Shown: positions 17,004-45,030 of the stretch, one piece after another
Layout: the number at the start of each line of letters is the position of its first letter
How positions within the stretch are numbered: the stretch's first letter is position 1
The notes under the pieces: model-generated
Told to the model about the DNA's origin: nothing
The model's database searches: none
The model's input: only the letters and a program-made list of their open reading frames with translations
DNA from: Deltaproteobacteria bacterium
GTDB lineage: Bacteria > Desulfobacterota > Deferrimicrobia > J040
Length of the DNA: 47,417 bases
Direction: 5' to 3'
Assembly: GCA_003696505.1 (NCBI GenBank)
Contig: RFHC01000063.1
Span: 1 to 47,417 of the forward strand
Position numbers and translations under genes: made by a program

Positions 17004-17004
17004 G

Positions 17005-17868
17005 TTACTCTCTCCTCCCGAATATCCCTTCCGGCCGGAGAAAGAGGACGGCAACGAAAAGAGCGAGGGCAAATATCCCCTGAAACATCGTGGAAGCAAA
17101 GACAACGATTATCGCTTCGCCCAGTCCAAGGATGATCCCTGCGAGGAGGAGTCCCGGGATCGACCCGAGTCCGGCAAGCACCGTGAGGATGAACGCGTTG
17201 ATGGTAACCGCTTCTCCCCCCACGGGATTGATGTGGGAGACGATTCCGAAGAGGGGACCGGCAAACCCGGCGAGAGCGCACCCGAGGACAAAGGCGAATC
17301 GGTCTATCCTCTCCACGTCAACCCCCACGAGAGCGGCGGCCTCCCTGTCCATGGAGGAGGCGCGGATCATCTTCCCCGTCTCCGTCCTTGCGAGGAAGAA
17401 CGTTAGCCCTCCGATAATCAGGAGGCTCACCAGGCCGGAAACGAGGTTCCCTCTGTTCACCTGAACGGGTCCGAGCCACACCCCCTCGGTCAACCAGGGG
17501 ATGTTGATGATGCGCTCGTCCGCGGTGAAGAGGAGGAGAAAGAGGTTCGTCAAGATAACCCCCACCCCGTAGGTGAGTATGAGGGTGTTCAACTCATCAT
17601 CCCGGATCCTCCGAACCACGAAGTAATAGAGGTATCCCACAATTCCGACGGAAAGTCCGGAAAAGAGGAGGGCCAGGGGGAGGGGAACCCCCATCCCCCG
17701 GATGGCGAAATATCCCACGTAAGCCCCCGCGAGGAGGAGCTCCCCGTGGGCAAGGTTGATGATTTTCAGAACACCGAAAACAAGACTCAACCCGACGGCA
17801 AAGAGAGCGTAGTTCGCTCCCATGAGGAGACCGGATGCGATGGAATTCGCAAGGAGAGAAAAACTCAT
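17005..17868 (-). CDS. Branched-chain amino acid-type ABC transporter permease (LivH-like)
   Basis: 287 aa and about 8 TM helices. The INLAHGELLLAGAY block is typical of LivH-type permeases. Confidence 0.9.
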   Translation of the reverse strand: MSFSLLANSIASGLLMGANYALFAVGLSLVFGVLKIINLAHGELLLAGAYVGYFAIRGMGVPLPLALLFSGLSVGIVGYLYYFVVRRIRDDELNTLILTYGVGVILTNLFLLLFTADERIINIPWLTEGVWLGPVQVNRGNLVSGLVSLLIIGGLTFFLARTETGKMIRASSMDREAAALVGVDVERIDRFAFVLGCALAGFAGPLFGIVSHINPVGGEAVTINAFILTVLAGLGSIPGLLLAGIILGLGEAIIVVFASTMFQGIFALALFVAVLFLRPEGIFGRRE

Positions 17869-17887
17869 CGTCTCCCCTCAACCCACC

Positions 17888-19069
17888 TCACATCCAGGGA
17901 ACCGCCGGATATACGGCGTCCGCGTTTTTCCTGTCCTCAGGATAGACGACGGTGAAATCGTTCCCCCGTATCTGGATGATGAGGCAGGTGAAGTATTTCG
18001 GGTCTCCCTTCTCGTCGAACGCGACCCTCCCGATGGGAGTGACCCGGTCCGTCTTCCTCAACTCCTCCAGAAGCCCCTCACGGTTCAACTTCCCTCTCTC
18101 GAAGGCTCTCTCCGCTGCCTCGAGCATCAGCTTCGCCCCGATATACCCGAGCATGGAGAGGTATGAAGGGTCCTTCCCGAACTTCTTGACGAAGAGGTCG
18201 ACGAAGGTCTTCTCCTCGTCCCTGGCCTCCTTCGGTGCCGTCCCCTTCTCCCAGAGGGAGGTGCCGTAGATGTAGTTACTCAGAGGCCCGAGTTCCTTAA
18301 TGAATTCGGGAGAGCCCACTCCCCAGGCCCCGATGTAGGCGTCCAGCTTCACCCCGAGGGTTTTCGCGCTCCGAATTGTCGCGACATAATCGGGGAAGTA
18401 CCCCTCGACGATGAGGATGTTCGCTCCCGACTCTTTCACCTTCAGGAGAAGCGGGTCGAAGTTCGTCGTCTTCGCGGCAAACTTCTCGAAGAAGACGACG
18501 GGTATTTTCTCAGACTCGAGCATTTTTTTAATGTTATTCGCAATGTCAAGCGTCGCCACTTTGCTGTTCGAGATGATTGCGACCTTTTTCTCACCGGAGA
18601 AAACGTCCCGGATGAGGCCGAGCTGTGCCTTCGCGTAGCCGGGAATGTTGTTCACCCGGTAGTAGTTCTTGAGCCCCCGGGCAGTGAGCTTCGAGCTGAC
18701 ACCCCCTACGGAGAGATATGCTACACCGTATTGAGCTGCCGTTTCGGAGGAAGGGCCGATAATGTGGCTTCCGTATCCCCCGTTAATTCCGATGACTCCC
18801 TCCCTGGCGATGAGTTTCTCAACAGCTGCAACCCCTTTCTGGGGGCTGCTCTCGTCGTCTACGACGATCATCTTCGCCTTCAACTTCCCTCCACGGGAGT
18901 TGAACTCATCAAAGGCAATCTGAGCCCCTTCAAGGCATCCCTGCCCGTGCTTGGCGAGTTTCCCCGTCAGGGGGTACTGGACCCCGATCTTCACCGTTTC
19001 CCCGAATCCTTTGTGGGGAAGAACAAGCAAGAAAACGAAACTGACAAAAAACAGAGTAAACTTCTTCAT
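17888..19069 (-). CDS. ABC transporter periplasmic substrate-binding protein (LivK/type I PBP)
   Basis: 393 aa. The signal peptide is MKKFTLFFVSFVFLLVL, followed by IKIGVQYPLTGKLAKHG characteristic of Leu/Ile/Val-binding-protein-family receptors. Confidence 0.85.
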   Translation of the reverse strand: MKKFTLFFVSFVFLLVLPHKGFGETVKIGVQYPLTGKLAKHGQGCLEGAQIAFDEFNSRGGKLKAKMIVVDDESSPQKGVAAVEKLIAREGVIGINGGYGSHIIGPSSETAAQYGVAYLSVGGVSSKLTARGLKNYYRVNNIPGYAKAQLGLIRDVFSGEKKVAIISNSKVATLDIANNIKKMLESEKIPVVFFEKFAAKTTNFDPLLLKVKESGANILIVEGYFPDYVATIRSAKTLGVKLDAYIGAWGVGSPEFIKELGPLSNYIYGTSLWEKGTAPKEARDEEKTFVDLFVKKFGKDPSYLSMLGYIGAKLMLEAAERAFERGKLNREGLLEELRKTDRVTPIGRVAFDEKGDPKYFTCLIIQIRGNDFTVVYPEDRKNADAVYPAVPWM

Positions 19070-19088
19070 TTGCCCCCTCCTTTCTTTT

Positions 19089-19805
19089 TTAAAGTCCCAG
19101 ATAGGCCCTCCTCACTTTCTCGTTTTCCTCCGCCTCTTCAGGTGGGCCGGAAAAACGGATCTCTCCGTTCTCCAGGACCCACACATAGTCTGAAATCTCG
19201 ATTGCCTTCTTCGCGTTCTGCTCCACCAGGAGCACCGTCTTTCCCGCTTCCCTCATTCGTTCAATGACCCGGAAAACCTCCGCCACGACCATCGGAGCGA
19301 GCCCGAGGGAGGGCTCGTCGAGCAACACCATGTCCGGGTCACCCATAAGTGCCCTGCCAATTGCAACCATCTGCTGCTCTCCCCCGGAGAGGGTGCGGGC
19401 AGTCTTTCTCAGGAGACGCCTCAGGTGGGGAAAGATTTCCAGCACCTCTTCGAGCCTCTCCTCCAGAGAATCTCCCTCTCTCCGCAGGAGATACCCCATC
19501 TCCAGGTTCTCCCTGACGGTCATATCTCCCCAGAGCCTCCTTCCCTCAGGGACGAGGGCAATCCCTTTCCGGGCAATCTGGTGAGTTTTCAACCCTCTCA
19601 CGCTCTCTCCCCTGAAGGTGATCTCCCCCTCGATGGGGGGAAGAACTCCCATGACCGTCCTCATCAGAGTCGTTTTCCCCGACCCGTTCGACCCGAGAAC
19701 CACCGTTATCTTCCCCTCTTCCGCCGACAGCGATACGCCCCTGAGGACGACAACCTCGCCGTATCCTGCAACAACACCTGACAGGCTGAGGATGGCTTCC
19801 GGCAC
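19089..19805 (-). CDS. ABC transporter ATP-binding protein (LivF-like)
   Basis: 238 aa with Walker A GSNGSGKTT, signature LSGGEQQM and Walker B VLLDEPS. Confidence 0.9.
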   Translation of the reverse strand: MPEAILSLSGVVAGYGEVVVLRGVSLSAEEGKITVVLGSNGSGKTTLMRTVMGVLPPIEGEITFRGESVRGLKTHQIARKGIALVPEGRRLWGDMTVRENLEMGYLLRREGDSLEERLEEVLEIFPHLRRLLRKTARTLSGGEQQMVAIGRALMGDPDMVLLDEPSLGLAPMVVAEVFRVIERMREAGKTVLLVEQNAKKAIEISDYVWVLENGEIRFSGPPEEAEENEKVRRAYLGL

Positions 19806-19806
19806 G

Positions 19807-20514
19807 CTACACCCCGAGGTACGCTTCTATGACGCCCCTGTCCCTCGTCGCCTCATCCGGAGGACCCTCGAAAATCTTCTCCCCGAAATTGAGGACGATA
19901 ATTCTCTCGCAGAGGGCATGGATGACGTGCATGTTGTGCTCCACCACAACGATGGTGAGCTTCTCCTTATCCTTTACCCGTCTCACCGTCTCGAGCATCC
20001 CCTCCACCTCGCGGGGGAGGAGACCGGCCATTACCTCGTCCAGAAGGAGGAGCACCGGAGAAGTGGCGAGAGCCCGGGCAAATTCGAGTTTCTTCTTCTC
20101 CGGAAGGCTCAGATTCCGCGCGGGAACATCCGCTTTCTTACCCAGCCCGAAGAGGTCGAGTATCTCTTGAACCCTCCCCTCTCCTGCCCTCCGGGGTTCC
20201 CGCCCGAAGAGGCAACTCGCCCTGACGTTTTCCTCAACGGAAAGGTCCGCCAGCGGTCGAACCAGCTGAAAGGTCCGGGCGACGCCCAGTTTTACTATCC
20301 GGTTCGGGCGAAGGCCGTCAATCCTCCTCCCCCGGAAGACGACGCGCCCCTCATTCGGCCTGAGGAAACCCGTGATGATGTTGAAGAGAGTCGTCTTCCC
20401 CGCCCCGTTGGGACCGATGATCCCCACTATCTCCCCCTCTTTCACGGCGAAGGTAAGGTCGCGAAGGACGGTAAGCCCCCCAAAACTCTTCGTCACCCCC
20501 TCAACCTTCAGCAC
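19807..20514 (-). CDS. ABC transporter ATP-binding protein (LivG-like)
   Basis: 235 aa with Walker A GPNGAGKTT and Walker B LLLDEVMAG. The signature region is degenerate (LSLPEKKKLEFARAL). Confidence 0.9.
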   Translation of the reverse strand: MLKVEGVTKSFGGLTVLRDLTFAVKEGEIVGIIGPNGAGKTTLFNIITGFLRPNEGRVVFRGRRIDGLRPNRIVKLGVARTFQLVRPLADLSVEENVRASCLFGREPRRAGEGRVQEILDLFGLGKKADVPARNLSLPEKKKLEFARALATSPVLLLLDEVMAGLLPREVEGMLETVRRVKDKEKLTIVVVEHNMHVIHALCERIIVLNFGEKIFEGPPDEATRDRGVIEAYLGV

Positions 20515-21662
20515 TCTCCCCCCTTTTTCAGGCAGTGCCTGGCAATAATGAGCCTCTGAATTTCTGACGTCCCCTCGTAAATTCTCGTGAGGCGGAGGTC
20601 TCTGTAAAATCGCTCCACTGGAAGGTCCTTCATGTATCCCATCCCCCCATGGACCTGGAGCGCCCGGTCAGCTATCTCGCACGCCTTCTCTGTGGCGAAA
20701 AGTTTTGCCATCGCCACACGGTGAGGAATCTTCTTCCCCTCGTCCATTTCCGCAGCGGCGGAGTAAATCATATTTTCCATTGCGTATATCTCCACGGCGG
20801 AATCGGCGATCATCCACTGGATCGCCTGAAAGCTCCCGATGGGCTTCCCGAAGGCAACCCTCTGATTCGCGTGCTCCACCATCATTTCGAGGAGCTTCCT
20901 GGCTGCGCCGAGGGCGCTGGCGGCTATTATGAGACGACCCTTGTCGAGGACTTCCATGGCGAGGCGGAAGCCCTTCCCCTCTCCGCCCACGACGTTTCCG
21001 GCAGGGACGCGGCAGTCGTCAAAGAAAAGCTCGCAGGTGTGCGACCCGCGGAGCCCCATCTTTTTCTCCGGCGGACCTACAGTGAACCCTGGAGTTCCCC
21101 GCTCTACCAGGAACATGGTGAGTCCGTCGTGCTTTTTCTCCCTGTCTGTCACGGCAATGACAGAAAAGAGGGAGGCTACGTCGGCGTTCGTGATGAACTG
21201 CTTCGTCCCGTTGAGGACGTAATTATCCCCCGCTCTAACGGCACTTGTCTTGATTCCGGCCGCATCGGAGCCTGCGCCGGGCTCAGTGAGTGCGAAGGCA
21301 GTGATGTATTCCCCCGTCGCGATTTTCGGGAGATACTTCTCCTTCTGCTCCGGAGTCCCCGCCAGGACGAGTCCGGTAACTCCAATACCGTTGTTCGTGC
21401 TGATAATCGTCCGGAAACACGCGTTGGTTCTCCCCATCTCCTCCATAACGGCGCACTGCCCCGTTACGGAGAAACCGAAGCCTCCGTACTCCTCGGGGAC
21501 GCTCATCCCGAAAAGGCCGAGCTGCCGCATCTTCGAGATGATCTCCTCAGGAATTCTGTCTTCCTCTTCAACCTGTGCGGATATCGGTTCAAGTTCCGTC
21601 TTGACGAATTTCCTCACCGTCTGGATGAAAATCTCCTCCTCCCGTTTCAGGACAATCCTCAT
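20508..21662 (-). CDS. Acyl-CoA dehydrogenase (short/medium-chain type)
   Basis: 384 aa with FALTEPGAGSDAAG, the catalytic-base region IYEGTSEIQRLIIAR, and GGMGYMKDLPVERFYRD. Confidence 0.9.
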   Translation of the reverse strand: MRIVLKREEEIFIQTVRKFVKTELEPISAQVEEEDRIPEEIISKMRQLGLFGMSVPEEYGGFGFSVTGQCAVMEEMGRTNACFRTIISTNNGIGVTGLVLAGTPEQKEKYLPKIATGEYITAFALTEPGAGSDAAGIKTSAVRAGDNYVLNGTKQFITNADVASLFSVIAVTDREKKHDGLTMFLVERGTPGFTVGPPEKKMGLRGSHTCELFFDDCRVPAGNVVGGEGKGFRLAMEVLDKGRLIIAASALGAARKLLEMMVEHANQRVAFGKPIGSFQAIQWMIADSAVEIYAMENMIYSAAAEMDEGKKIPHRVAMAKLFATEKACEIADRALQVHGGMGYMKDLPVERFYRDLRLTRIYEGTSEIQRLIIARHCLKKGGEC

Positions 21663-21951: not shown

Positions 21952-23412
21952 TTACTTCTTCGCCAGAACCTTCTCGAAGAGTTTAATCGCCTCCTGCGCG
22001 TCCTCCTTGACCTTATCAAGGACGGCCTCGGCGTATTCCACGTTGTGGAATCCGTTGCCCAGTTTCACGAATCGGTAGTTGTAACGGGCCCTGTTGAGCT
22101 TTATCATCGCCCGTCGGAAATCGTCGTTCCTCGTCCTGACGGAGCGGGCGAGCTCCTCCGCGCGCTCGAGAATGGGGGCTGTCGCCTCGAGAGCTTCCTC
22201 AACCGTGCTCTTCCACTCGTCAAGAACTCCCTCATAGTCCTCGCCGTGGCATCCGATGCAGGCGGCCTCGGAGGCCTTGTAGGTCTGGCCGGTGAATTCC
22301 GCCTCGCCGGCCCCTACCTCCGGGACCTTGTGACAGCCGATGCAGTCAACCTGGGCGAGGAACATGACAGATGGCATCCTTTCAACGCCCTTTGCTCCCG
22401 TCCCGGCGTACATCTCTTTTGTAGCGTTGTGCTTGTTCTCGTGGCAGATGGAGCAGTCGTACTGGAGGGGTTCAACAGCCGTCCTCACCTTATGCTTGAT
22501 TTCGAAGTGACAGTGTGTGCAGTCCACCTTGTGTTCCGTCACGTGCATTCTGTGGATGAAGACCGTGTCCTCATACCTGGAGAGTCGTTTCTCGTCGTTG
22601 TGACACTGGAAACAGCGGTCCTTGGGAGCATCTCCCGTCCCCTGGATGGCGTCGAGGTGGCAATTCTGACAGTCCACTTTCCTCTCGCCGACGAAGTCCT
22701 GGTGATTGAAGGTGACTCCCTCAAACTCGATATCCTGCTTCGGGGCAGTGTGACAGGATGGACAACCTCCGATGGGCTCTTCCTGCCGCCCCTTGACCAT
22801 CCCCTTGAAGTGACAGAGGAAGCAGGTGTTCTCCGTCACCTCCATGTGATTTCCCACGACGATCTGGCTGTGACACGACGTGCACCTGAGCTTCTTTCCC
22901 CTTCTCTCCTGGGTCAGATGGGGTTTGTGGTCGAACTTGATCCCTCTCTTGAAGATGACCTGCCCCTCCAGGAGGCGCTTCTCGTGGCATCCCTTCCTGA
23001 GACAGGAATCGTCGCTAATCTCTGCGTAGGGCTTCGAGCTGTAGGTTCGCGTCACGTACTTCACCACCTGGGAAACAGCCTGGAACTTGAGCCAGAGCTT
23101 TTCCCTCAACTCCGGAGGGTAGTGGCAGTCCACGCAGGGAACGTGGTTGTGGCTCGAGGTTTTCCACGCCTCGTAGTAAGGCTTCATTATGTGACAGGAA
23201 CTGCAGAAGTAGGGACTGGTGGAGAACTCGAACATACCGATGGAAAAGATGAGAAAGAGGACCCCCAGGAACCCGAGAAACTTGAAGAATCTCGGGCGGA
23301 TGTGTAGCTTGTCCTCTTTCCCCTCGGGGATGTGCATCCCCAGGGTCTCGAGGACCCGGTGTTTCTTCCTGCCCCCTTCATTCCCCTTTTTGTCTCCACT
23401 GCCTGTAACCAT
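21952..23412 (-). CDS. NapC/NirT-like membrane-anchored multiheme cytochrome c (11 CxxCH plus 1 CX4CH)
   Basis: 486 aa. After one TM helix (FLGFLGVLFLIFSIGMF) comes FCSSCHIMKPYYEAWKTSSHNHVPCVDCH, the classic NapC/NirT opening. The remaining motifs are CTSCH, CFLCH, CPSCH, CQNCH, CFQCH, CTHCH, CSICH, CIGCH and CIGCH, plus CLRKGCH. The RBS is GAAGGAAGG. Confidence 0.85.
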   Translation of the reverse strand: MVTGSGDKKGNEGGRKKHRVLETLGMHIPEGKEDKLHIRPRFFKFLGFLGVLFLIFSIGMFEFSTSPYFCSSCHIMKPYYEAWKTSSHNHVPCVDCHYPPELREKLWLKFQAVSQVVKYVTRTYSSKPYAEISDDSCLRKGCHEKRLLEGQVIFKRGIKFDHKPHLTQERRGKKLRCTSCHSQIVVGNHMEVTENTCFLCHFKGMVKGRQEEPIGGCPSCHTAPKQDIEFEGVTFNHQDFVGERKVDCQNCHLDAIQGTGDAPKDRCFQCHNDEKRLSRYEDTVFIHRMHVTEHKVDCTHCHFEIKHKVRTAVEPLQYDCSICHENKHNATKEMYAGTGAKGVERMPSVMFLAQVDCIGCHKVPEVGAGEAEFTGQTYKASEAACIGCHGEDYEGVLDEWKSTVEEALEATAPILERAEELARSVRTRNDDFRRAMIKLNRARYNYRFVKLGNGFHNVEYAEAVLDKVKEDAQEAIKLFEKVLAKK

Positions 23413-23436: not shown

Positions 23437-24738
23437 TTACTCCTCCCGGTCCCCTTCTTCCCGGCGCACCTGGAAGAGTTTCGCCACGAAGAGGAGACCG
23501 AGGATGAGGAAGAGTCCGGACCCGGCGAGGGCCACCCGCACCCTCAGCCTGTCCTGGGCACGCATCTTCTCCACTTCCTCTTCAGCGATACGTATCTGGT
23601 CATCGGCGTCGATGAGGTTTCGCCGAAGAATCCCGGGATTGAGAGCGTGGGTTTTGGGCCTCATCTGGACGAACTGAGCAGACAATTCCGTGACAGCGCT
23701 TTCAAGCCTGTCGATGAACTTCCCCGTTTTTTTCGCTTCTTCGAGGACGCCTGTCAGCTCCTCGAGCTTTTCCTGAACGAAGAGAATTTTCTCCTTTAAC
23801 TCCTGTCCCACCTTATACGCCTCTTCGGACTCGTCGTGGCAGTAACCGCAGTGTCCTTCTTCGCTCCCGTCAAACATGGCCGGCGTGGGAAGGTCGTTTT
23901 TGTGATTTCCATGGCAGTCGACGCAGCGCGGCTCACCCGTTTCCTTAACGGCCTCGCCGTGAGGGCCCATCCTGAAATACTCGTAAATGTTGGAGTGACA
24001 GTTACCGCACACGTTCGGCACCTCCTCAACGCCGGGAGGCCGGGCACCGTGGATTCCGTGACAGGTAGCGCAGTTCGGAACGAGGAGAGGGTTTTTCCCC
24101 TCAACTTCCCCGTACAGGATTTTCCCGTGGTACCCCTTGCGGTAGAGGTCGTACTGGTTTGCCGGGATACCGTACTTCGACATCAGTTCTTCGTTGGCGT
24201 GGCACTTCGCGCAGGTTTCCGGCACGTTCGTGTGAAATACAGATGAGAGAGGGTCGCTCTTTTTCCTGATTTCGTGGGTCCCGTGACAGCTCACGCAGGT
24301 GGCGACGTTCGGGTCTCCCTGAGCGAGGAGAATTCCGTGCTGGCTCGTCTTGTACTCCTCCCACTGGTCCGTCCGGAGGTTATACTGCTTCATCATCTTC
24401 ACATCGGAATGGCACGAACCGCAGAGTTCCGGTATCTCAAAGGGTGTTGGCACTCCCCGGAAGTTGTACTTCTCGCTCATCGAATCTTCCGAGGTGATGT
24501 ATGGATTTCCCCCGTGGCAGACGTCGCAGGTAATACCCACTTTCCGGTGAATGCTCTTCTCCCATCCATCTGCGGAGACTTTCATCCTCCCGCCCAGCTG
24601 GTAATGGCAGTTGTAACAACTGTTGTCCGTCTCTACCTTTCCGTGGGCAATTCCCCCGGTAAAAATCACACCGCACATCAGGAGGATGACGCAGAGGACG
24701 ACGGCGGCAACATTTCGCTTTGACCGGTTCTCCCTCAT
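23437..24738 (-). CDS. Nonaheme c-type cytochrome with N-terminal signal/anchor and C-terminal TM helix
   Basis: The start is set to the ATG at 24738 (MRENRSKRN), which forms an ATGA overlap with the upstream stop. The nine CxxCH motifs are CYNCH, CDVCH, CGSCH, CVSCH, CAKCH, CATCH, CGNCH, CVDCH and CGYCH. It shows the repeated pattern CxxCHGxHxI...DPLSSV...TCxKCH. The C-terminal helix is VALAGSGLFLILGLLFVAKLF. Confidence 0.85.
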   Translation of the reverse strand: MRENRSKRNVAAVVLCVILLMCGVIFTGGIAHGKVETDNSCYNCHYQLGGRMKVSADGWEKSIHRKVGITCDVCHGGNPYITSEDSMSEKYNFRGVPTPFEIPELCGSCHSDVKMMKQYNLRTDQWEEYKTSQHGILLAQGDPNVATCVSCHGTHEIRKKSDPLSSVFHTNVPETCAKCHANEELMSKYGIPANQYDLYRKGYHGKILYGEVEGKNPLLVPNCATCHGIHGARPPGVEEVPNVCGNCHSNIYEYFRMGPHGEAVKETGEPRCVDCHGNHKNDLPTPAMFDGSEEGHCGYCHDESEEAYKVGQELKEKILFVQEKLEELTGVLEEAKKTGKFIDRLESAVTELSAQFVQMRPKTHALNPGILRRNLIDADDQIRIAEEEVEKMRAQDRLRVRVALAGSGLFLILGLLFVAKLFQVRREEGDREE

Positions 24739-25172
24739 CACGAGAAATACCCCCAGGCCGTGAAGATGATGTAGAGTATGGCGAGCGTTATCCCGATTCT
24801 CAGGGCGTACGGCCTCTCTGAGGGACGAACGGACGGATTTCTGTCTATGAAAGGAAGGAAGAAGAGGAGGAGGCCGATTACTCCCTGGGCGAGAATGCCT
24901 ATGATTTTCGGCGCCCACATTCCGATGAACTGGAGCTTATCAGCGGCCTTCAAAAACTGGTACGCCGCCAGGAAGTACCACTCGGGTTTGATGTGTTCCG
25001 GCGTGACGTAAGGGTCTGCTTTTGGAAGGTAGGGAGGAGGGAAAAAGGCCGCAAGGGAAACGAGTAGCGCCATGAGGATGCAGATGAGAACGAGTTGCTT
25101 CAATATGTGGTTCGGATAAAAGGGCTCAGACCCGTATTTCCAGGTTTTTTCCTTTTCCACGGTTCCCTCCAT
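24738..25172 (-). CDS. Cytochrome b C-terminal domain protein (b6f subunit IV-like)
   Basis: It has the PEHIKPEWYFLAAYQFLK block and three TM helices. I chose the ATG at 25172, 7 nt after the cytochrome b6-like stop. The track ORF begins at a TTG at 25202 instead, so the start is uncertain. Confidence 0.8.
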   Translation of the reverse strand: MEGTVEKEKTWKYGSEPFYPNHILKQLVLICILMALLVSLAAFFPPPYLPKADPYVTPEHIKPEWYFLAAYQFLKAADKLQFIGMWAPKIIGILAQGVIGLLLFFLPFIDRNPSVRPSERPYALRIGITLAILYIIFTAWGYFS

Positions 25173-25179
25173 GAGTCTC

Positions 25180-25953
25180 TCAAAGCGGGTCGGCAATGCC
25201 AAGCCGACGAATCATTAGGAAGTGAACGGTCAGAAAAAGCATCGTTATCCCGGGAAGGATGACGACGTGCATCGCGAAGAACCTCGTGAGCGCGAGCTGT
25301 CCCACATCGTGTCCCCCCCGGATGAGGTATTTCAGCGTTTCCCCCACAAGGGGGATGGCTGACACTCCCTCCGTCCCCACCGTCGTCGCCCAGTAAGAGA
25401 GCTGATTCCAGGGGAGGAGGTACCCGGAAAAGCCGAAACCGAGGGTGAGTGCGAGGAGAACCACTCCCGAAACCCAGGTAAGCTCCCTCGGTGGCTTATA
25501 AGCGCCCGTGAGGAACACGCGGAGCATGTGGAGGAAGACCATCACGATGAGGAGGCTCGCCCCCCACGCGTGCATTCCCCGAATGAGCCATCCGAAAGGG
25601 ACCTGTCCTGTTATCTCCATCACAGACTGATACGCCTCTGAGACCGTGGGCCGGTAGTAAAAAAGGAGGAGCACTCCCGTGAGAATCTGAACGAGGATGA
25701 GAACGAAGGACATTCCGCCGAGGCACGCGAGCAGGTTCGTCTCCAGTTTCGTCCGGTAGTGAGGCGCCGGTTTTTTCAACTGCTGGGCCAGTGCCTCGTC
25801 GAAGTCGAGCCTGTCGTCCAGGGCCCCGTAGAGGAACCCGATGAGGGACATGAGGTTGAGGATGTCTATGTATGCCCGCTTTTTCGTCTCTTCCAGGTCG
25901 GTCTGAGGTTGCCTCTCCGTATCGTTTTTCTGACTCCCTGTCATTCCCCTCAT
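25180..25953 (-). CDS. Cytochrome b N-terminal domain protein (cytochrome b6-like)
   Basis: 257 aa with HAWGASLLIVMVFLHMLRVFLTGAYKPPRELTWVSGV and RFFAMHVVILP blocks carrying the heme-ligating His residues. Its start overlaps the Rieske stop by 4 nt. Confidence 0.85.
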   Translation of the reverse strand: MRGMTGSQKNDTERQPQTDLEETKKRAYIDILNLMSLIGFLYGALDDRLDFDEALAQQLKKPAPHYRTKLETNLLACLGGMSFVLILVQILTGVLLLFYYRPTVSEAYQSVMEITGQVPFGWLIRGMHAWGASLLIVMVFLHMLRVFLTGAYKPPRELTWVSGVVLLALTLGFGFSGYLLPWNQLSYWATTVGTEGVSAIPLVGETLKYLIRGGHDVGQLALTRFFAMHVVILPGITMLFLTVHFLMIRRLGIADPL

Positions 25954-26378
25954 CCTCCAACGACGATTTTGTCACCGGCCACTCTCGCGTCGTACACCCT
26001 CAGCGGAGAGGGGGGAGGGCCTGCAAGGACGGAACCGTTCAGGTCGAATTTCCCTCCGTGGCAGGGGCAGGAGATGAACCCCTCCTTTTTATACATGACG
26101 ATGCACCCCAGGTGGGTGCAGACGGCGGAAAGCGCGTAGACCCTATCGCCCGTCCTGACCACGATAACCTTGTCCCCCCGGAAGGGATACACCTTGTACC
26201 CGTTAAGGGGGACCTCTTCCAGCGGAACGGACAACGCCTCTCCCGACGTGCGGGCCCCGCTCCTCGGCCAGAGAAATGAGATAACCGGGTAGAGGACAGA
26301 GAGCCCGATCACTCCGCCGACGAGAGCGATGAGTCCGTTGAGGAACTTTCTCCGGGTCGTCTTCCCTTCCTCCGCCAT
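25950..26378 (-). CDS. Rieske [2Fe-2S] protein with twin-arginine signal
   Basis: 142 aa. It has a TRRKFLNGL Tat motif followed by a TM helix. The cluster boxes are CTHLGC and CPCHGG. Confidence 0.9.
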   Translation of the reverse strand: MAEEGKTTRRKFLNGLIALVGGVIGLSVLYPVISFLWPRSGARTSGEALSVPLEEVPLNGYKVYPFRGDKVIVVRTGDRVYALSAVCTHLGCIVMYKKEGFISCPCHGGKFDLNGSVLAGPPPSPLRVYDARVAGDKIVVGG

Positions 26379-26878: not shown

Positions 26879-27280
26879 TCACGAATTCCGGGAGAGACAG
26901 CTGGCACAGGTTCCGTAAAAGACGACCTGGAAAGATGCGACCTTACCCACGCCTTTTAAAACCGTCTCGTCGATGAAATCCCCGCTCCTTACTCCATGGA
27001 CGTCGATGATGGAGTCGCAGGTTGTGCAGTGAAAGTGTCCGTGGGGACTCACTTCGGCATCATATCGGGCGCTCGGGCTGAATTCGCTTTTGATTTCGAT
27101 TATTTTCCCCTGGTCCTTCAGGATTTTCAGGTTCCTGTAGACCGTTCCCAGGGATAGATTGGGAATGATTTTCCTGGCCTCCTGGTAAATCCACTCGGCG
27201 TCGGGGTGGCTGTGGGTGTTTTTCAGGACGCTGAGGACGACGTTCCTCTGCCTCGTATTTCTCCTCTTGACCTCCTTCAT
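26879..27280 (-). CDS. Fur family metalloregulator (Fur/PerR/Zur, subtype not resolved)
   Basis: 133 aa with NTRQRNVVLSVL...HPDAEWIY...LSLGTVYRNLKIL winged helix, an HGHFHCTTC box and a C-terminal CASC box. Confidence 0.85.
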   Translation of the reverse strand: MKEVKRRNTRQRNVVLSVLKNTHSHPDAEWIYQEARKIIPNLSLGTVYRNLKILKDQGKIIEIKSEFSPSARYDAEVSPHGHFHCTTCDSIIDVHGVRSGDFIDETVLKGVGKVASFQVVFYGTCASCLSRNS

Positions 27281-27326: not shown

Positions 27327-27341
27327 TGTATAATGTATTGA
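27327..27341. promoter_or_regulatory. Fur-box-like 15-mer upstream of the fur-family gene
   Basis: TGTATAATGTATTGA lies 47-61 nt upstream of the fur-family ATG. It matches 12 of 15 positions of the palindrome at 38470..38484. Confidence 0.3.
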
Positions 27342-38138: not shown

Positions 38139-38381
38139 TCATTTTAACCGGGATATCCTCTTCACGATTTCCGGGCGTATTCCCGGAGGTGCCGGGTCTC
38201 CCCTGAAGAGCATCCCTTCAAGGTCCCGGTCCTCCATCTCCAGGAGACGGAGAAATTCCTCTCGCTCCTCTCGACTCAACCCCTCCCACTCCCTTTCGAA
38301 GAAGTCGAGAAGGAGGGTCTCCAGTTCGAGGGTGGAGCGTCGGGAGCAGAGGAAACGAACTTTCCTGGTCACTTCGTTCAC
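38139..38381 (-). CDS. SdhE/YgfY-family FAD assembly factor (DUF339)-like protein
   Basis: 80 aa with a GTG start 5 nt after GGAGGA. The block CSRRSTLELETLLLDFF...FLRLLEMEDRDL matches the RRGxLELD...helical pattern of SdhE-like flavinylation factors. Confidence 0.6.
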   Translation of the reverse strand: MNEVTRKVRFLCSRRSTLELETLLLDFFEREWEGLSREEREEFLRLLEMEDRDLEGMLFRGDPAPPGIRPEIVKRISRLK

Positions 38382-38469: not shown

Positions 38470-38484
38470 TGTATATTGTATACA
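38470..38484. promoter_or_regulatory. 7-1-7 palindrome in the divergent promoter region of the second cytochrome operon
   Basis: TGTATAT-T-GTATACA, with the half-sites complementary at 6 of 7 positions. The geometry is that of Fur-family operators. It lies 111-125 nt upstream of the 9-heme cytochrome ATG and 89-103 nt upstream of the SdhE-like start. Confidence 0.35.
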
Positions 38485-38594: not shown

Positions 38595-39668
38595 ATGAAG
38601 TGGAGAGTTGCTGCCCTCTTCCCTCTCATTCTCATTCTCTTCCTTCCCCTCGCCCCGAAAACATCTCAAGGAGAGTGGGTCGGACAGTCCCGCTGCCTCG
38701 TCTGCCACGGGAAGAGGGAGTACCGTTTTTACAAAAAAGGAGGATACGCGAAGAACCTCTACGTCTCACTCGAAGAACTCAGAGCATCCGTCCACAAAGA
38801 GAAGTTTTGCTCCGACTGCCACACCGACGTGGTGGAACTCCCCCACAGGGGAACGCCTTCCCGCGTCTCCTGTACCACCTGTCACTACAAGGGGAACCCT
38901 GAAGGAGCGCCCCAGCTGGATGCATATCTGGAGTACGAAAGGAGCATTCACGGGCTCGAAGCGAAAGAGGGGAATCCGGATGCTCCCCTCTGCCAGGACT
39001 GCCACGGGTCCCACAACGTCCGTCCCCCCGAAGACCCCCTCTCGACGGTGAACAAAAGGAACGTCGCGCGCACCTGCGGGAAGTGCCACATCGACATCTA
39101 CGCCGAGTTCAGGACGAGCATCCACGGCGTTGCCGTCGCACGGGGGGTGGAGGACGCTCCTTCCTGCCCCGACTGCCACGGCGAACACAACATCCTCGAG
39201 CCGACGAATCCGGAGTCTACGGTCTACCCCTCCCACGTGCCGACGCAGTGCTCGAAGTGCCACGCCCGGGAGGCGATTCGGGAAAAGTACGGGATCAAAG
39301 CGGAGCCCGTCAAGACGTACAGGGAGAGTTTCCACGGAGTGGCCATAGAATTCGGCGCGAGGACCGTGGCAAACTGCGCCTCCTGCCACGGGACACACGA
39401 CATTCGCCCGCCTGAAGACCCCCTCTCTTCCGTCAATCCTGAGAACATCCCGAAAACCTGCGGGAAGTGCCACCCCGGCGCGACGCCGAAATTCGCGGAG
39501 GGGAAGATTCACATAGACCCGACGAAGAAAGAGGCAGGCGCCGTCTACTACGTGGCCTCCTTCTTCAAATACCTCACCATCACGACGATGCTCGGGCTTA
39601 TCTGCCACATCCTCCTCGACCTGTACGGGAGGGTCAGGAGGATGAGGAGAAAGGAGAGAATGAGATGA
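38595..39668 (+). CDS. Nonaheme c-type cytochrome with signal peptide and C-terminal TM helix
   Basis: The start is at the ATG at 38595 ([17 protein letters not shown]) after GGAGAAAGGGGG. The nine CxxCH motifs are CLVCH, CSDCH, CTTCH, CQDCH, CGKCH, CPDCH, CSKCH, CASCH and CGKCH. It shows the repeated pattern CxxCHGxHxI.PPEDPLS.VN..N...TCGKCH. The C-terminal helix is [24 protein letters not shown]. Confidence 0.85.
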
Positions 39669-40585
39669 GCTCCAGAGAGAAAGAACTGATCGACCTCCTC
39701 GTGAAAGAAGCGGAAGACGAATTCCTCAGGACGGCTGGAGACCTCCCCCCCGAAGAACTGGAGAGAATCCGGCAGAAGGTGCGGGAGAGAGCGCGGGCAG
39801 AGGCGGAGAGAGAGGTGAGGAGACTCCTCCGGAAGAGGGAGGAAGAGGAGAAGAGGGAAAGAGAAAGAGTGGAGGAGGAAGAGGAGTACTTCATCCGTTT
39901 CAACCGGAACTTCCGGTTCCAGCACATGGTCCTCTTCACATCCGTCATCATCCTCATCATCACGGGACTCCCCCTGAAGTTCCCCGACTTCGCCCTCTCC
40001 CGCTGGCTCATGAGCCTGTGGGGAGGAGTCAAGTACAGCACCGTCATTCACCGGATTGGCGCAACGATGCTCATCTACTTCATGGTCCACCACCTCCTCT
40101 ACACGCTCCTGAGCAGGGACGGGAGGAGAGACTTCATCATGCTCATCCCCACACCCAAAGACTTCCGCGATTTTTTCCAGAACATCCGCTACTTCGTCGG
40201 GAAGACGGAGGACCCGCCGAAGTTTGACCGCTTCTCTTACATCGAGAAGTTCGACTACTGGGCCGTCTACTGGGGATGCGTCATCATGATCGGGTCGGGC
40301 CTCATCCTCTGGTTCGAGGAAACGGCCATGAAGTTCCTCCCCAAGTTCTGGGTCGACATGGCCCACGAGGCCCACTCGGACGAGGCCCTCCTGGCAACCC
40401 TTGCCATCGTCATCTGGCACTTCTACAACGTCCACTTCAACCCCGACAGGTTCCCGGGGACACTTTTGTGGTGGCACGGAAAGATCTCGAAAGAGGAGAT
40501 GCTCAAGGAGCACCCGCTGGAGTACGAGCGCATCATGGCTGAAAGGGCCCGCCGAAAAGAGGCGGGAGAGGAGGGGAGACAATGA
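39665..40585 (+). CDS. FdnI/HydC-type diheme cytochrome b (4 TM) with a charged N-terminal extension
   Basis: The start ATG at 39665 overlaps the upstream stop (ATGA). Four predicted helices carry His residues ([54 protein letters not shown]), as in Ni/Fe-hydrogenase and formate dehydrogenase b-type subunits. The first 75 aa or so are Glu/Arg/Lys-rich. Confidence 0.8.
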
Positions 40586-42564
40586 GGGAGATGATATCCG
40601 ATTTCTTCCGCTTCCTCGGGGAATACCGGCGGCCCATCCTGAAAATCGTGATTTTCCTCCTCATCCTCTTCGTCGCATACAACGGTGTCTTCTTTATCTC
40701 CCTGAACCACCCGAAATCGTGCACCGTCTGCCACTACATGGACCCTTACTACGAGCAGTGGAAGAGTTCCTCACACAACGGGGTGAAGTGCCTCAAGTGC
40801 CACACCTTCAAGCCTCTCTTTATCACGGTGACGACGGTCAAGTACCTGACGGGGACTTACAACCCCAGACCTCACGCCGTCGTGAAAGACGATTCGTGCC
40901 TCTCGAAGGGATGCCACTCCCTCCGTCTGGAGAAACCTGAAGTCCCCTTCGCAGAGGAGGTGGTCTTCGACCACAAGGAACACATGGAAAAACTCAAGCG
41001 GGGGGAGAAACTCACCTGCACCTCCTGCCACTACCAGGTTGTCCAGGGGGAGCACATGACCGTGGACTCCCGTGTCTGCTTTCTCTGCCACTTCAAGGGA
41101 ACGGGCCCGGGACAGGCCGTGGGGGGATGCACTTCCTGTCACAGAAACCCGGGAGAGGTGGAAACGCACGTGGGCTTCCGATTCAATCACGCCCCTTACC
41201 TGAAGAGAGGGCTCGAGTGCCACAACTGCCACCTCCGGGTTGCCGAAGGAACGGGAAAAGTTGAGAAGGACCGTTGCTATTCCTGCCACGTGGAGAGGAA
41301 GAGGGAGAAACTCGACCGCATCTCGCTCCACAAAATCCACGTCACCGGCCAGCACCTTCCCTGCCTCTCCTGCCACGAGGAGATACGCCACGAAATCGTC
41401 GAAATGGCGAAGATGTTCGGAGGGAACTGCACGTCCTGCCACGGGTCTCTCCACGAGGAAAAGGAGGAAATCTATATGGGGACAGGTGCCCGGGGAATTC
41501 CCCCATCCCCTTCCCTCATGTTCGTCGCCCAGGTCGCCTGTGACGGCTGTCACAAAGGTGCTGTCCGGGGAGAAACGAAGGGGGAAAGGCAGATTTCCGC
41601 TCTCAGGCAGACCTGCGTGGAGTGCCACTCCACGGAGTACGGAAAGATGCTGAACACGTGGATGACATGGGGGGAGAGAATTATCAAAGAAACGAAGAAG
41701 GTGAGAGCCAGAGGGCGGGTCCTCCTCGCGAAGGCGAAGGAGAAGGGAATAAAGGACGCTGTCTCCCTGCTGGAGGACATATCCGCCAACGCAGAGCTCC
41801 TGGAAAGGGGAGTCCCTGCCCACAACATCACCTTCGCCTGGGAGATAGCCAGGACTGCCTACACTCAGTACAGCATCGCCGCAGGTTATCTGGGGGAGAA
41901 GCCTCTCCCCCTCCCCGACTTCCTCTCCTCTCCCGAGAAGACCTGCATCTCCCTCTGCCACGGCGACCTGGGAATACCCGGAGATGTGGAAGTTGAATCC
42001 CTCGGGACGGCATTTCCCCACTCCACCCACCGGGAAGACCTGGGCCTTCCCTGCACCCGGTGCCATACGCCGGAAAAACACCGGGTCGAGAAGTTCCGAC
42101 CCGGGGAATGCACAGGCTGCCACCACGGCGGGGAAGCAGAGCTCGAGTGCGCCACCTGCCACGTGAAGACATCGGCCCTTTACGCGGGGAAGAGCGATGG
42201 AAACCTCCCCCCGTCGGAGATGTTCGAGGCGGAAGTCAACTGCACGGACTGTCACGGAGAGGGAAGCCACATCTCCGCCGACACGCGAAAAATAAGAGAA
42301 AGGTGCATCGAATGTCACGACGAATCCTACGGGGAAACTCTGGAGGAATGGCTTGACGCATCCGCAGAGGTGAGAAAGCGCGGGGAAAAACTCCTGGAGG
42401 AACTCCTCCTCGTCACGGAAAAGAGGGAAAACCCCGACGAGAAGGCTCTGCTGGAAGAAACGAGAAAACTCGTTTCCTCCATACTCGCTGCCAATCCGGT
42501 CCACAATCTGGATGGGGCGGAGAAAGCCCTCGCAGAGGGCGAGAAAGCGCTGAGGAAGGAATAG
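40582..42564 (+). CDS. NapC/NirT-like membrane-anchored multiheme cytochrome c (16 CxxCH plus CX4CH and CX3CH)
   Basis: 660 aa, with an ATGA overlap to the cytochrome b gene. After the TM helix ([21 protein letters not shown]) comes [29 protein letters not shown]. It is colinear with the 21952..23412 protein over about 440 aa, and a 5-heme C-terminal extension follows. Confidence 0.85.
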
Positions 42565-42662: not shown

Positions 42663-42739
42663 CGGGGCGTGGCGCAGCCTGGCAGCGCACTTGCCTTGGG
42701 AGCAAGGGGTCGCCGGTTCAAATCCGGCCGCCCCGACCA
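42663..42739 (+). tRNA. tRNA-Pro (anticodon UGG), CCA encoded
   Basis: Acceptor stem CGGGGCG/CGCCCCG, D-stem GCGC/GCGC, anticodon stem CTTGC/GCAAG with loop CTTGGGA, and T-arm GCCGGTTCAAATCCGGC. A TATAAT lies at 42644..42649 upstream. Confidence 0.9.
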
Positions 42740-42847: not shown

Positions 42848-44875
42848 TCACTGCAATCTGACAGCCACTCCCATCGTCGAGTCCGTGGACCCCGGGTAAC
42901 AATTTCCTGAACCGCCGCTGCAGGAAGAATCGGAATTCTGAGGAATATCGTCCGTGTCTATCGGGGTCCACACCAAACCGACATCACCCGTCTCATCGAT
43001 AGCGATTCTGGCCACGTAGGCGCCGTCGGCTGGCGAGTAGATTTTATACACGGGAATCGCGATGCCCCCGGAGCAGGTCGCATCGCTCAGGGGAAGATCT
43101 TCTCCGTAACACTCCGTAACGAGCTCAATCGTTCCGTTCCCTGTATCAAAATCGACCAGACCGGAAAACGAATCTTTATGTATGAAAGACCACGAGACAT
43201 CACACGTCGCAGACCCGCAGGACGTGATGGTCACATCACCGTAGGTCACTCCGAAATCGAGGGTCTCGTTCCCGTTTCCCCAGGTCCCGTCGGTATCAGA
43301 AACCTCTGTGTTGACGAGAGAGAGGAACCATCTCCCCTCGATATCCCCGAGGGAGGGATTCTCATCGACGTTGAGAATGAAACCGGTTACCACATTGTGG
43401 TTCCCGGAGTTATCGGGGTCCTTCTCCGTTTTCTGACCCCCCGTGATACCGTTCCCCCGGGAGTTGAGGGCTCCGAAGAACGAGGGGTCAGTGGCCACGT
43501 CAAGGAGACCATCATTCTGGACCGTGACGAAATTGCCGACCGGCGTGCTGTCGCTGGATACGTGCTCGAAGGAGCCATATGTACTCCAGTTCTGGAGCAC
43601 GGAATTGATGTAAACCGGGGAGAAATCGGTAACAGAGCGCCACTCCACCGTGCTCGGGGTCTGGCCCTGAGCGTCAGCGTCGATAACCAGCAGACTGCTT
43701 CCCTGCAGAGTCACTCCTGCCGACGGATACGGGTTCGGCTGCGTCTCGTCATACCGAAGGCCAAAGTGGGGAGAAGCTACGAGGTACTTTCCGGTAAAGG
43801 GGGGTGCAGTCGAAGGTTTTTTCACCGCGTAAATCACGTCGTTCTCCCTCATGTCGGAGACGTGGGCTCCCACAAAGGTGGAACAGTCAGACGAAACGGC
43901 ACCCTCCAGGAATCCACCGCCCGTAAAGAAGAGGAAGACCCTGTTTCCCGATTGAACGTATGTCCCCGTCATGGGTCCCTGCGCCGAAGGGTTCACCGGG
44001 TCAACGACGCCCTCGTCGATCGCATCTGTCGTGTCCCAGCTGTCCAGGTTGTGCCTGTGCTCAGCCATTCCTCCCTGGTCGAAAGTTTTCGTCTGGTCCA
44101 CTGAGATTCCGCCGTTTCCGTCGAACGTTGCCACTCCCCATCCCGATATTGCCATCGAATTCCGGAACATGTCGTCAAGTGTCGGGTTCTGGATGAGATT
44201 TCCGGTATCGTCATAGGGGTCTGAACTCAAATTGAAGTGGACGAACCAGTATTCTCCCGAAAGGGTACAGGCACCAGGTTCTTCCACATAATCGACGAGA
44301 CTGACTGTAGGAGGGAGGAGTTCTGCGCTGTTATTGACGCACCTCAGGGTGTCAGCCGTGTTGAAAATCATCTTCACGACCGTGTTGGCATTCGCTTCCA
44401 CGACCACGGGGGACTGAAGGAGAAAAGGAGACGACGACGAACCGTCATTCGTCCACCCCGTTCCCCCGCCATCGTCGGCAGTGGCGAAATAGATTTCCAC
44501 CTGGGCGTCAGGTGGGAGCGAATCGTCGACGAGCAGGGTCTGTGTGACGGGAGAACCGGATCCGCACGGGTCTGGCCCGGAGTAAGAAAACTGATTTTTC
44601 ATGACGAGCTTCAACCTCCTGTAGGTCCCGGCCGGCACCTGTCCCTGGCCGAAAACATCTCCCGGGTTTGCCACCAGGTCGGAAAGAATTCCCCCGGAGT
44701 CACTGAATATCTCTACGGGCATGCCCGAGGAATCCGTCATGAGCGCCGCAGAGTATATCGTCACTTCCAGTCCCGTGGGGTCTTCCGCTTCCAGGTGTGG
44801 GGAGTTCATTACGCCGGCAAAAAGCACCAGGAGGGCAACGGCGAGTCCTGTCAGTATGAGATTTCGTCTTTCCAT
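42848..44875 (-). CDS. Large secreted acidic Gly/Ser/Thr/Asp/Asn-rich protein of unknown function (N-terminal region DUF4382-like, tentative)
   Basis: The start is at the ATG at 44875 (MERRNLILTGLAVALLVLFAGV signal peptide) after GAGGGGGGG. There are no TM helices downstream. Paired Cys residues occur near the C-terminus (TSCGSATC, TECYG...ATCSG, SSCSGGSGNC). The segment LEVTIYSA...DLV...VPAGTYRRLKLVM recalls DUF4382. Confidence 0.75.
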   Translation of the reverse strand: MERRNLILTGLAVALLVLFAGVMNSPHLEAEDPTGLEVTIYSAALMTDSSGMPVEIFSDSGGILSDLVANPGDVFGQGQVPAGTYRRLKLVMKNQFSYSGPDPCGSGSPVTQTLLVDDSLPPDAQVEIYFATADDGGGTGWTNDGSSSSPFLLQSPVVVEANANTVVKMIFNTADTLRCVNNSAELLPPTVSLVDYVEEPGACTLSGEYWFVHFNLSSDPYDDTGNLIQNPTLDDMFRNSMAISGWGVATFDGNGGISVDQTKTFDQGGMAEHRHNLDSWDTTDAIDEGVVDPVNPSAQGPMTGTYVQSGNRVFLFFTGGGFLEGAVSSDCSTFVGAHVSDMRENDVIYAVKKPSTAPPFTGKYLVASPHFGLRYDETQPNPYPSAGVTLQGSSLLVIDADAQGQTPSTVEWRSVTDFSPVYINSVLQNWSTYGSFEHVSSDSTPVGNFVTVQNDGLLDVATDPSFFGALNSRGNGITGGQKTEKDPDNSGNHNVVTGFILNVDENPSLGDIEGRWFLSLVNTEVSDTDGTWGNGNETLDFGVTYGDVTITSCGSATCDVSWSFIHKDSFSGLVDFDTGNGTIELVTECYGEDLPLSDATCSGGIAIPVYKIYSPADGAYVARIAIDETGDVGLVWTPIDTDDIPQNSDSSCSGGSGNCYPGSTDSTMGVAVRLQ

Positions 44876-44886
44876 GATTCCCCCCC

Positions 44887-45030
44887 TCACTGGTTTGTCC
44901 CACCGGAGACGGTGACCGTCCCCTGTGATTGACCATTACCTCCTCCCCCTCCTCCGCAGGAGACGGCGAAGAGAAAAGCAGACAAAAGGAGAGCTACCGC
45001 GATTGCTCTTTTCCCGCTAAATCCTTTCAT
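44887..45030 (-). CDS. 47-aa signal peptide/lipoprotein-like stub
   Basis: Below the ORF-track size cutoff. The ATG at 45030 follows AAAGGAGGAAGGA directly. The protein is MKGFSGKRAIAVALLLSAFLFAVSCGGGGGGNGQSQGTVTVSGGTNQ. It has a hydrophobic core, an AVSC lipobox-like site and then a Gly linker. The TGA at 44887..44889 lies 11 nt before the next gene's ATG. Confidence 0.4.
   Translation of the reverse strand: MKGFSGKRAIAVALLLSAFLFAVSCGGGGGGNGQSQGTVTVSGGTNQ

Follow-up and report, generated by a model that had tools for sequence, protein, structure and literature searches.

Which part of an electron-transport chain is encoded by three cytochrome genes that overlap one another end to end, and in which direction would electrons pass through their products? 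The genes, here called A, B and C, lie on contig RFHC01000063.1 of a Deltaproteobacteria bacterium (assembly GCA_003696505.1, Deferrimicrobia J040), within the 47,417 nucleotides (nt) that make up the whole stretch of DNA analysed, referred to below as the window. We consider it reasonably probable (about 0.6) that A, B and C are subunits of a single inner-membrane unit linking the menaquinone pool to periplasmic cytochromes. From the sequence we infer that the three products associate physically and oxidise quinol, and that electrons leave outward to a periplasmic or extracellular acceptor. The proposal is built on the structure of the genes, their cofactor motifs, topology signals and family relationships, their tight translational coupling and the conservation of the trio, all of which are observed directly. 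The step from the quinone pool to periplasmic cytochromes is the least understood one in extracellular electron transfer, and nearly all work on it concerns Geobacter and Shewanella.

38595..39668, plus strand: gene A, 357 residues, 9-heme periplasmic c-type cytochrome
39665..39668, plus strand: ATGA overlap of the A stop and the B start (direct sequence reading)
39665..40585, plus strand: gene B, 306 residues, diheme cytochrome b of the FdnI/HyaC (PF01292) family
40582..40585, plus strand: ATGA overlap of the B stop and the C start (direct sequence reading)
40582..42564, plus strand: gene C, 660 residues, membrane-anchored multiheme c-type cytochrome

The positions of the three genes and of both ATGA overlaps had been reported in a preliminary description of this DNA and were confirmed from the sequence. 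Each gene has a purine-rich ribosome-binding site before its start, and a terminator scan between A, B and C gave nothing above background. Because homologues number in the hundreds for each product (754 matches for C and 2284 for B), the three are taken to be real genes and not chance open reading frames.

The arrangement is widely conserved. Species-representative genomes were scanned with two B motifs, which placed relatives of B in at least 593 species genomes, and 47 loci with a close B were examined. A lies directly upstream and C directly downstream of B in about 40 of these 47; three others have a cytochrome with 26-37 hemes in place of C, two have nothing downstream and one lacks downstream sequence. 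The loci that bear the trio carry at least 14 phylum-level record labels, namely 'Deltaproteobacteria'/Deferrimicrobia, Acidobacteriota, Ignavibacteriales, Calditrichota, Zixibacteria, Latescibacterota, Bacteroidota, Poribacteria, Aquificota, WOR-3, Hydrothermae, Bipolaricaulia, Methylomirabilis and Syntrophorhabdales, with Schekmanbacteria in addition. The closest relatives of the window proteins are labelled Candidatus (Ca.) Deferrimicrobiaceae. Many loci have a longer array, consisting of a fused 11-heme bc protein, an 11-heme c, a short b, A, B and C, of which the window is the minimal form. Distant relatives of B pair with, or are fused to, cytochromes with 5-7 hemes, as in Desulfosporosinus hippei and Thermincola ferriacetica.

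A second scan, of metagenomes and anchored on C, found B immediately before C in 58 of the 69 loci with enough upstream sequence; the 11 exceptions are proteins resembling F, a second NrfH-headed cytochrome of the window that is described below. The B/C junction reads ATGA or GTGA in 45 of those 58 loci and in about 22 genome loci, and A and B overlap by 1-14 nt in 21 of the 37 related loci that could be called (38 examined). The giant cytochromes (26-37 CxxCH) follow a long-form B at L017:10936-13305, L020:10933-12723 and in L026 (downstream of 10720), with the same 4-nt overlap in L017 and L020.

Relation of A and B to CbcL

39561..39629, plus strand: C-terminal transmembrane (TM) helix of A, residues 323-345, with a basic cytoplasmic tail after it (hydropathy scan)
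39665..39889, plus strand: charged N-terminal cytoplasmic extension of B, residues 1-75, with 20 K/R and 26 D/E
40229..40261, plus strand: most conserved motif of B, residues 189-199, at the cytoplasmic end of TM3; candidate quinone-site loop, invariant in two alignments

As the preliminary description had it, A is a 9-heme protein and B a four-helix one. A begins with a signal sequence, carries exactly 9 CxxCH motifs and ends in a membrane anchor; B has four hydrophobic helices, 10 His and no CxxCH. Besides the His of its heme motifs, A has 9 more His that are invariant across 21 orthologues, which is compatible with nine bis-His hemes. Its Pfam matches are Cytochrome_C7 and Paired_CXXCH. Searches of PDB sequences with A alone and with an A profile found no close structure, the best matches being MccA and the unnamed cytochrome 28pb_A (E 1e-6 to 3e-5). 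Within the TM helix of A, D342 is invariant, and H338 is common and replaced in 4 of the 21 orthologues.

B had been called an FdnI/HydC-type protein, and the search chosen in advance to challenge that assignment upheld it. Against Pfam PF01292 (cytochrome b561 / Ni-hydrogenase cytochrome b) B scores 52 bits with a cut-off of 30, and residues 87-304 align with nearly the entire E. coli FdnI (1kqf_C) in a PDB sequence search, at about 19% identity. The AlphaFold model of B (predicted local distance difference test, pLDDT, 79) has only two meaningful PDB matches by Foldseek, FdnI (1kqf_C, probability 1.0) and E. coli HyaC (6g94_A). The NCBIfam equivalog models for FdnI and HybB (formate dehydrogenase gamma, hydrogenase cytochrome b) match weakly, at 35 bits against a cut-off of 116. 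H87, H129, H237 and H252 of B are invariant among orthologues and align with His18, His57, His155 and His169 of FdnI, which are its heme ligands. Residues 189-199 align with FdnI loop 108-118, which according to Jormakka et al. 2002 reportedly lines the menaquinone/2-heptyl-4-hydroxyquinoline N-oxide (HQNO) pocket on the cytoplasmic side. Hydropathy and charge distribution give B an FdnI-like topology with both termini cytoplasmic.

The N-terminal extension of B is predicted by AlphaFold to be a single long helix continuous with TM1. It is present in B proteins coupled to C (286-349 residues) and absent from relatives of B without C (226-281 residues). B is far better conserved than C, with orthologue identities of 62-75% vs 40-47%. 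The charged extension was seen only where a C-type or giant multiheme cytochrome comes next.

CbcL of Geobacter (GSU0274) is one polypeptide in which a periplasmic part (residues 30-279) with nine bis-His hemes is followed by a HydC/FdnI-like diheme b domain, in agreement with the architecture given in the preliminary description; published accounts assign to its membrane domain six helices and five candidate His. CbcL is characterised by being needed to respire acceptors below about -0.1 V. Likeness of A to the c domain of CbcL-type proteins, also singled out beforehand as the point on which the comparison would turn, was detected. Locus L002 encodes a fused bc protein of 653 residues, the N-terminal half of which, including the helix after the heme domain, is matched by A (33% over 327 residues, E 5e-61) and the C-terminal half by B (41% over 249 residues, E 9e-52). 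In this alignment the TM helix of A pairs with the helix that joins the c and b domains of the fused relative. By tblastn, A (27% over 334 residues, E 1e-24) and B (36-44%, E 1e-23 and 2e-11) also match, in colinear order, a CbcL-like Geobacter-type gene in L083, a frameshifted gene that is tied to GSU0274 only by 30 residues with 94% identity to a badly machine-read supplementary figure (PMC9129911). The proposal of a split CbcL is supported by the colinearity of A and B with the halves of a protein of fused CbcL architecture. The alignments support viewing A and B as a two-gene version of the CbcL/MtoC/MtrH type, and we speak of a split relative and not of a strict CbcL because the c and b domains are unfused.

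The CbcL-like gene occupies L083:4635-6511, adjoins ATP synthase F0 genes, and its frameshifts are probably assembly errors. It is followed at L083:7076-8524 by a 482-residue NapC/NirT-like cytochrome that has only the heme-1/heme-2 signature in common with C. A His in the helix of A, as proposed for CbcA, was considered as a fourth b-heme ligand and rejected, since the four FdnI-equivalent His are all present in B itself and H338 is not fully conserved.

Orthologues of B (P0127, P0134, P0135 and many more) are publicly annotated as 'formate dehydrogenase subunit gamma' or 'cytochrome b subunit of formate dehydrogenase'. Because no formate dehydrogenase genes were found beside B in any locus examined, this naming probably reflects a systematic annotation error. 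Molybdopterin or NiFe catalytic genes were likewise absent next to B in the window and in L001-L082.

Gene C and its paralogue in the Rieske/cytochrome b6 operon

40582..40917, plus strand: NrfH/NapC-NirT-like head of C, with a cytoplasmic N-terminus, a TM helix, heme 1 (CTVCHYM), heme 2 and the CX4CH heme 3 (NrfH profile match)
40897..40917, plus strand: CX4CH motif CLSKGCH, residues 106-112 of C
41926..42531, plus strand: duplicated module of C, residues ~449-650, with six hemes and a three-helix bundle, ending in the invariant H641-N642 (alignment with F 261-465)
41944..41961, plus strand: CX3CH motif CISLCH, residues 455-460 of C

C had been described as a 16-heme protein. Its 16 CxxCH motifs are exact; the heme count is most likely 18, since C has a CX4CH and a CX3CH motif in addition. 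The former is invariant in the family and aligns with a canonical CxxCH (e.g. CLK--CH) in 11 of 34 orthologues, and the latter is conserved in the family and is a canonical CxxCH in L023, L033, L042, L045 and L081. Orthologues with canonical motifs in those columns have 17 or 18 of them. C is counted as an 18-heme protein because both motifs are conserved and aligned in this manner. From alignment conservation, candidate sixth ligands can be named for all 18 hemes: 15 His (13 invariant and 2 near-invariant), the invariant M313, the near-invariant M547, and M53. A conserved sixth ligand for every heme would fit an electron-transfer protein rather than a catalytic one.

The assignment of C to the NapC/NirT type stands for its head only. 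By hydropathy, C has a single membrane helix near its N-terminus (residues 22-40), and the body of the protein is periplasmic. A profile of its first 180 residues, from 23 orthologues, matches Desulfovibrio vulgaris NrfH (2j7a_C) with E 7.8e-12 over the TM helix and hemes 1-2. The match includes the CxxCHxM-P signature, in which M53 is kept in 45 of 48 sequences, and the similarity stops past about residue 100. Scores of C lie under the family cut-offs for both PF03264 (19.4 vs 24.1 bits) and TIGR03153, the NrfH model (44.9 vs 134.2 bits, E 1.2e-11), as does its match to the NCBIfam DmsE-family model (7e-12). In the AlphaFold model of C (pLDDT 82) two three-helix bundles are visible. A fold search of the PDB with the full-length model returned nothing significant, with local likeness only to NrfA and octaheme nitrite reductase. 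Public annotations of C read 'hypothetical' or 'cytochrome c3 family'.

A second cytochrome operon of the window, 13 kilobases (kb) away and on the opposite strand, contains paralogues of both A and C:

25950-26378, minus strand: Rieske protein
25180-25953, minus strand: cytochrome b6
24738-25202, minus strand: subunit IV
23437-24918, minus strand: E, 9-heme cytochrome, paralogue of A (32%, E 1e-33)
21952-23412, minus strand: F, NrfH-headed cytochrome with 11 CxxCH, last gene of the operon and paralogue of C

Residues 8-419 of C are 38% identical to F (E 3e-98), and the heme-1 motif of F, CSSCHIM, retains the NrfH-type head. Residues ~449-650 and ~250-419 of C both match the same stretch of F, residues 261-465, the former being a second copy of the last third of F. 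Together C and F belong to a superfamily of 307 clusters at 50% identity (E<=1e-30). A short C of about 520 residues with 13 CxxCH, without the duplicated six-heme module, is found in L018, L019, L024, L025, L027, L028 and L050, the hosts of which are Ignavibacteriales, Calditrichota, Zixibacteria and Methylomirabilis. In L001, L002, L007, L017, L039, L045 and L063 the Rieske/b6 set stands directly beside the A-B-C genes.

This paralogy weakens the case for C necessarily being an independent quinol oxidase. Among the alternatives the most probable one, which we regard as possible but doubtful, is that C does not oxidise quinol itself and would be a wire that collects or distributes electrons, docked on B and/or A as F serves the Rieske/b6 core. 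Beyond the identity to F, the last gene of that operon, this is suggested by the single plan on which both window operons are built (a 9-heme c and a multiheme c with an NrfH-like head accompany a b-type membrane module), by the strict B/C overlap together with the C-specific extension on B, and by the substitution of giant 26-37-heme cytochromes for C in three loci. However, the NrfH TM helix and CxxCHxM are kept in 45 of 48 members and would be needless for a passive wire, and F has the same head, so that F too may touch quinol.

Electron flow through the unit and surroundings of the operon

If A, B and C do form one unit between menaquinone and the periplasm, B would sit in the membrane with two stacked b hemes, H87/H252 ligating the cytoplasmic one and H129/H237 the periplasmic one, and by analogy to FdnI its quinone pocket would be on the cytoplasmic side. 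A would be a chain of nine bis-His c hemes and, to judge from the fused relatives, would be docked through its C-terminal helix on the side of B that faces the periplasm. C would be made in fixed proportion to B by means of the ATGA overlap and would act beside or on B; anchored by its N-terminal helix, it would offer an NrfH-type quinol-dehydrogenase head and then an 18-heme wire stiffened by the two three-helix bundles. Menaquinol would be oxidised at B and/or, on the periplasmic face, at the head of C, and electrons would exit along both heme chains, first to soluble cytochromes of the periplasm and then to an extracellular or periplasmic acceptor. As such, the trio would be a hard-wired pairing of two kinds of quinol oxidase that are encoded separately in Geobacter (CbcL or CbcBA, and ImcH).

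CbcL, CbcBA and ImcH are described in the literature as inner-membrane quinol oxidases of Geobacter. The flow from menaquinol to the periplasm is favoured because these roles fit it, as do the Deferrimicrobiaceae labels and the Fe(III) reduction proposed for a cluster of the MBNT15 lineage (discussed below). The family also occurs in metal oxidisers, so the electron export that had been suggested for the unit is a candidate function and the flow may go either way.

Several observations weigh against this reading of the trio. If the quinone site of B faces the cytoplasm as in FdnI, quinol oxidation via B would oppose the membrane potential. F belongs to an operon in which the Rieske/b core does the quinol oxidation, and an NrfH-like head is no proof of quinol oxidase activity in C. 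The link to Geobacter CbcL proper runs through a frameshifted metagenomic homologue found via a poorly machine-read figure. No gene for an outer-membrane conduit adjoins the operon in the window. The CbcL/MtoC/MtrH family is found in metal reducers and in Fe(II) oxidisers, without a sequence feature that tells the direction, and given the CbcL/MtoC relatives in Fe(II) oxidisers electron flow may run inward.

That the unit runs inward is in our estimate unlikely, somewhat more so than a role of C as a wire. Periplasmic or extracellular donors (Fe(II), reduced cytochromes, or H2 or formate by way of cytochromes) would then supply electrons for the reduction of menaquinone at B. This is the direction suggested for MtoC of iron oxidisers and the one demonstrated for FdnI, and formate dehydrogenase-N (FDH-N) reduces quinone at the n-side (PMC10772276); B has the FdnI ligand set and a conserved loop aligned with the cytoplasm-side region of FdnI, and its wider family is at home in both reducers and oxidisers. 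On the other hand, the nearest relatives come from a lineage whose members are predicted to reduce iron organotrophically (PMC9386147), the window genes around the operon point to beta-oxidation and amino-acid uptake, not autotrophy, and the characterised relative, Geobacter CbcL, acts as a quinol oxidase.

A self-contained redox loop is a further reading, and we hold it to be improbable. Here low-potential A would feed B, menaquinone would be reduced on the cytoplasmic side, and the menaquinol would be re-oxidised at the periplasm-facing head of C, with electrons leaving by higher-potential hemes of C and two protons moved per two electrons. Such a loop would draw on the presence of two quinone-reactive modules in one operon with predicted sites on opposite membrane faces, on the contrast between an all-bis-His A and two conserved Met-bearing motifs in C that suggest higher-potential His/Met hemes, and on the tight coupling and wide conservation of the trio. 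However, A and C are both periplasmic and could short-circuit on contact, the location of the quinone site of B is drawn from analogy only, and a complex of such a type is without precedent. Taken to its full extent, this reading would make the trio a new kind of energy-conserving respiratory complex, in which electrons going from the low-potential 9-heme chain to an 18-heme chain of possibly higher potential would drive the loop; such a bc1-like coupling site made of hemes only, in more than a dozen phyla, is in our view equally improbable.

The weakest proposal, in which B would serve a formate dehydrogenase or hydrogenase as its gamma subunit and C would be an outer-membrane MtrA-like terminal reductase, is very improbable: it has on its side the Joint Genome Institute (JGI) name 'formate dehydrogenase subunit gamma' for B orthologues, the weak MtrA similarity of an MBNT15 16-heme protein (PMC9386147) and the sub-threshold DmsE-family match of C, and against it the absence of catalytic formate dehydrogenase or hydrogenase genes beside B in the window or L001-L082, the low score of B on the FdnI/HybB equivalog models, the N-terminal membrane helix and NrfH-type head of C and the lack of an adjacent porin gene.

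The operon is bounded on its two sides as follows:

38139-38381, opposite strand, divergent from A: SdhE-like gene, upstream boundary
42663-42739: tRNA-Pro, downstream boundary

A class II ribonucleotide reductase gene also bounds A-B-C upstream, and the other neighbours in the window are housekeeping genes. The tRNA was the sole match in an Rfam scan. A protein of 680 residues (42848-44890, minus strand) converges on the operon from beyond tRNA-Pro; it has an N-terminal signal-like helix, is rich in Gly, Ser, Thr and Asp, and gave no Pfam match at E<=0.001. On the minus strand, 9744-21662 holds a block of genes for fatty-acid beta-oxidation (acyl-CoA dehydrogenases, enoyl-CoA hydratase, 3-hydroxyacyl-CoA dehydrogenase), for a sigma-54 activator and for an ABC transporter of branched-chain amino acids; the genes for beta-oxidation and amino-acid uptake are compatible with an organotrophic host.

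A perfect palindrome, TGTATATTGTATACA, is located at 38470-38484, 110 nt upstream of gene A, and is the sole exact copy in the window. Its layout is similar to the 7-1-7 boxes bound by Fur-family regulators. A degenerate copy, TGTATAATGTATTGA, is located at 27327-27341, 47 nt upstream of a gene for a Fur-family regulator (26879-27280, minus strand). These sites may hint at iron- or peroxide-responsive control of the operon.

Comparison with known systems

In the literature searched, the trio is not described beyond the note on the MBNT15 cluster. Not found described before are the strict A-B-C trio itself, an 18-heme NrfH-headed partner with CX4CH, CX3CH and an internal duplication, the C-linked N-terminal extension of B, and the parallel to the Rieske/b6 operon. 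The trio joins two known module types, a CbcL-type bc and an NrfH-type cytochrome, in a combination that is conserved and tightly coupled, and most of the groups that host it are uncultured. If it were one complex, it would offer a defined target for work on how electron export or uptake is wired outside the model organisms, on the reason for having several quinol oxidases and on energy conservation. It also corrects the routine annotation of B ('formate dehydrogenase gamma') and of C ('hypothetical', 'cytochrome c3 family').

With NrfH, CymA and the NapC/NirT family C shares the single N-terminal helix, heme 1 in CxxCHxM-P, and then a conserved His and heme 2 at equal spacing. It differs from them in having 18 hemes in 660 residues, compared to 4-5 hemes in about 160-200 residues, and no gene for an NrfA-type partner is present. 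ImcH, as published, has three N-terminal TM helices and seven CxxCH, compared with a single TM helix and 16+2 heme motifs in C. B has the fold and the four His of FdnI and HyaC; unlike these it is partnered with a multiheme cytochrome, has extra N- and C-terminal cytoplasmic helices and lacks adjacent molybdopterin or NiFe genes.

In CbcBA (GSU0593-0594), a predicted inner-membrane quinol oxidoreductase, one gene encodes a multiheme c that ends in a membrane helix and another, downstream of it, a 4-helix diheme b. A and B are likewise a separate c with a C-terminal TM helix upstream of a 4-TM diheme b. CbcA has seven hemes, however, and A nine; CbcB reportedly has three heme His, the fourth coming from the CbcA helix, and B has all four, CbcBA being compared here by its published description. 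CbcL and CbcB are reportedly without sequence homology to each other, and A and B fall on the CbcL side of that divide. With CbcL they have in common the nine-heme bis-His c domain, the HydC/FdnI-type diheme b and the order of the two. They differ in being two polypeptides joined by an ATGA overlap, A with a signal sequence and one helix and B with four helices and the 75-residue extension, and cbcL is without the 18-heme partner that comes after A-B here. Fused CbcL/MtoC/MtrH proteins have been reported in about 15 phyla, and in Rhodoferax a cymA and a CbcL-type gene are located in one cluster.

The Rieske/b6 operon of the window follows the same plan as A-B-C, in that a b-type core in the membrane is combined with a 9-heme c and with a multiheme c that bears an NrfH-like head. 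It differs in its core of Rieske protein, b6 and subunit IV, which is unrelated to an FdnI-type b, in the absence of the duplicated six-heme module from F, and in gene order.

A published counterpart in composition is 'Cluster 1' of Ca. Deferrimicrobium borealis SHF-111 (MBNT15), in which two cytochromes b of four helices each stand with four multiheme cytochromes that carry 9-16 CxxCH (Begmatov et al. 2022, PMC9386147). That cluster was proposed to serve Fe(III) reduction, with the 16-heme protein read as an outer-membrane MtrA-like reductase and the subunits left without family assignment (PMC9386147). We disfavour the outer-membrane reading of the 16-heme protein because C has an N-terminal NrfH-type anchor. 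L001 (CP070770) was considered as the published SHF-111 genome and dropped, the accession in the paper being JAMHFW. Compared by composition, the SHF-111 cluster corresponds to A-B-C joined by three more cytochromes, one b-type, one with 9 hemes and one with 11, as in L001; in the window, by contrast, the two halves of such a cluster lie 13 kb apart on opposite strands.

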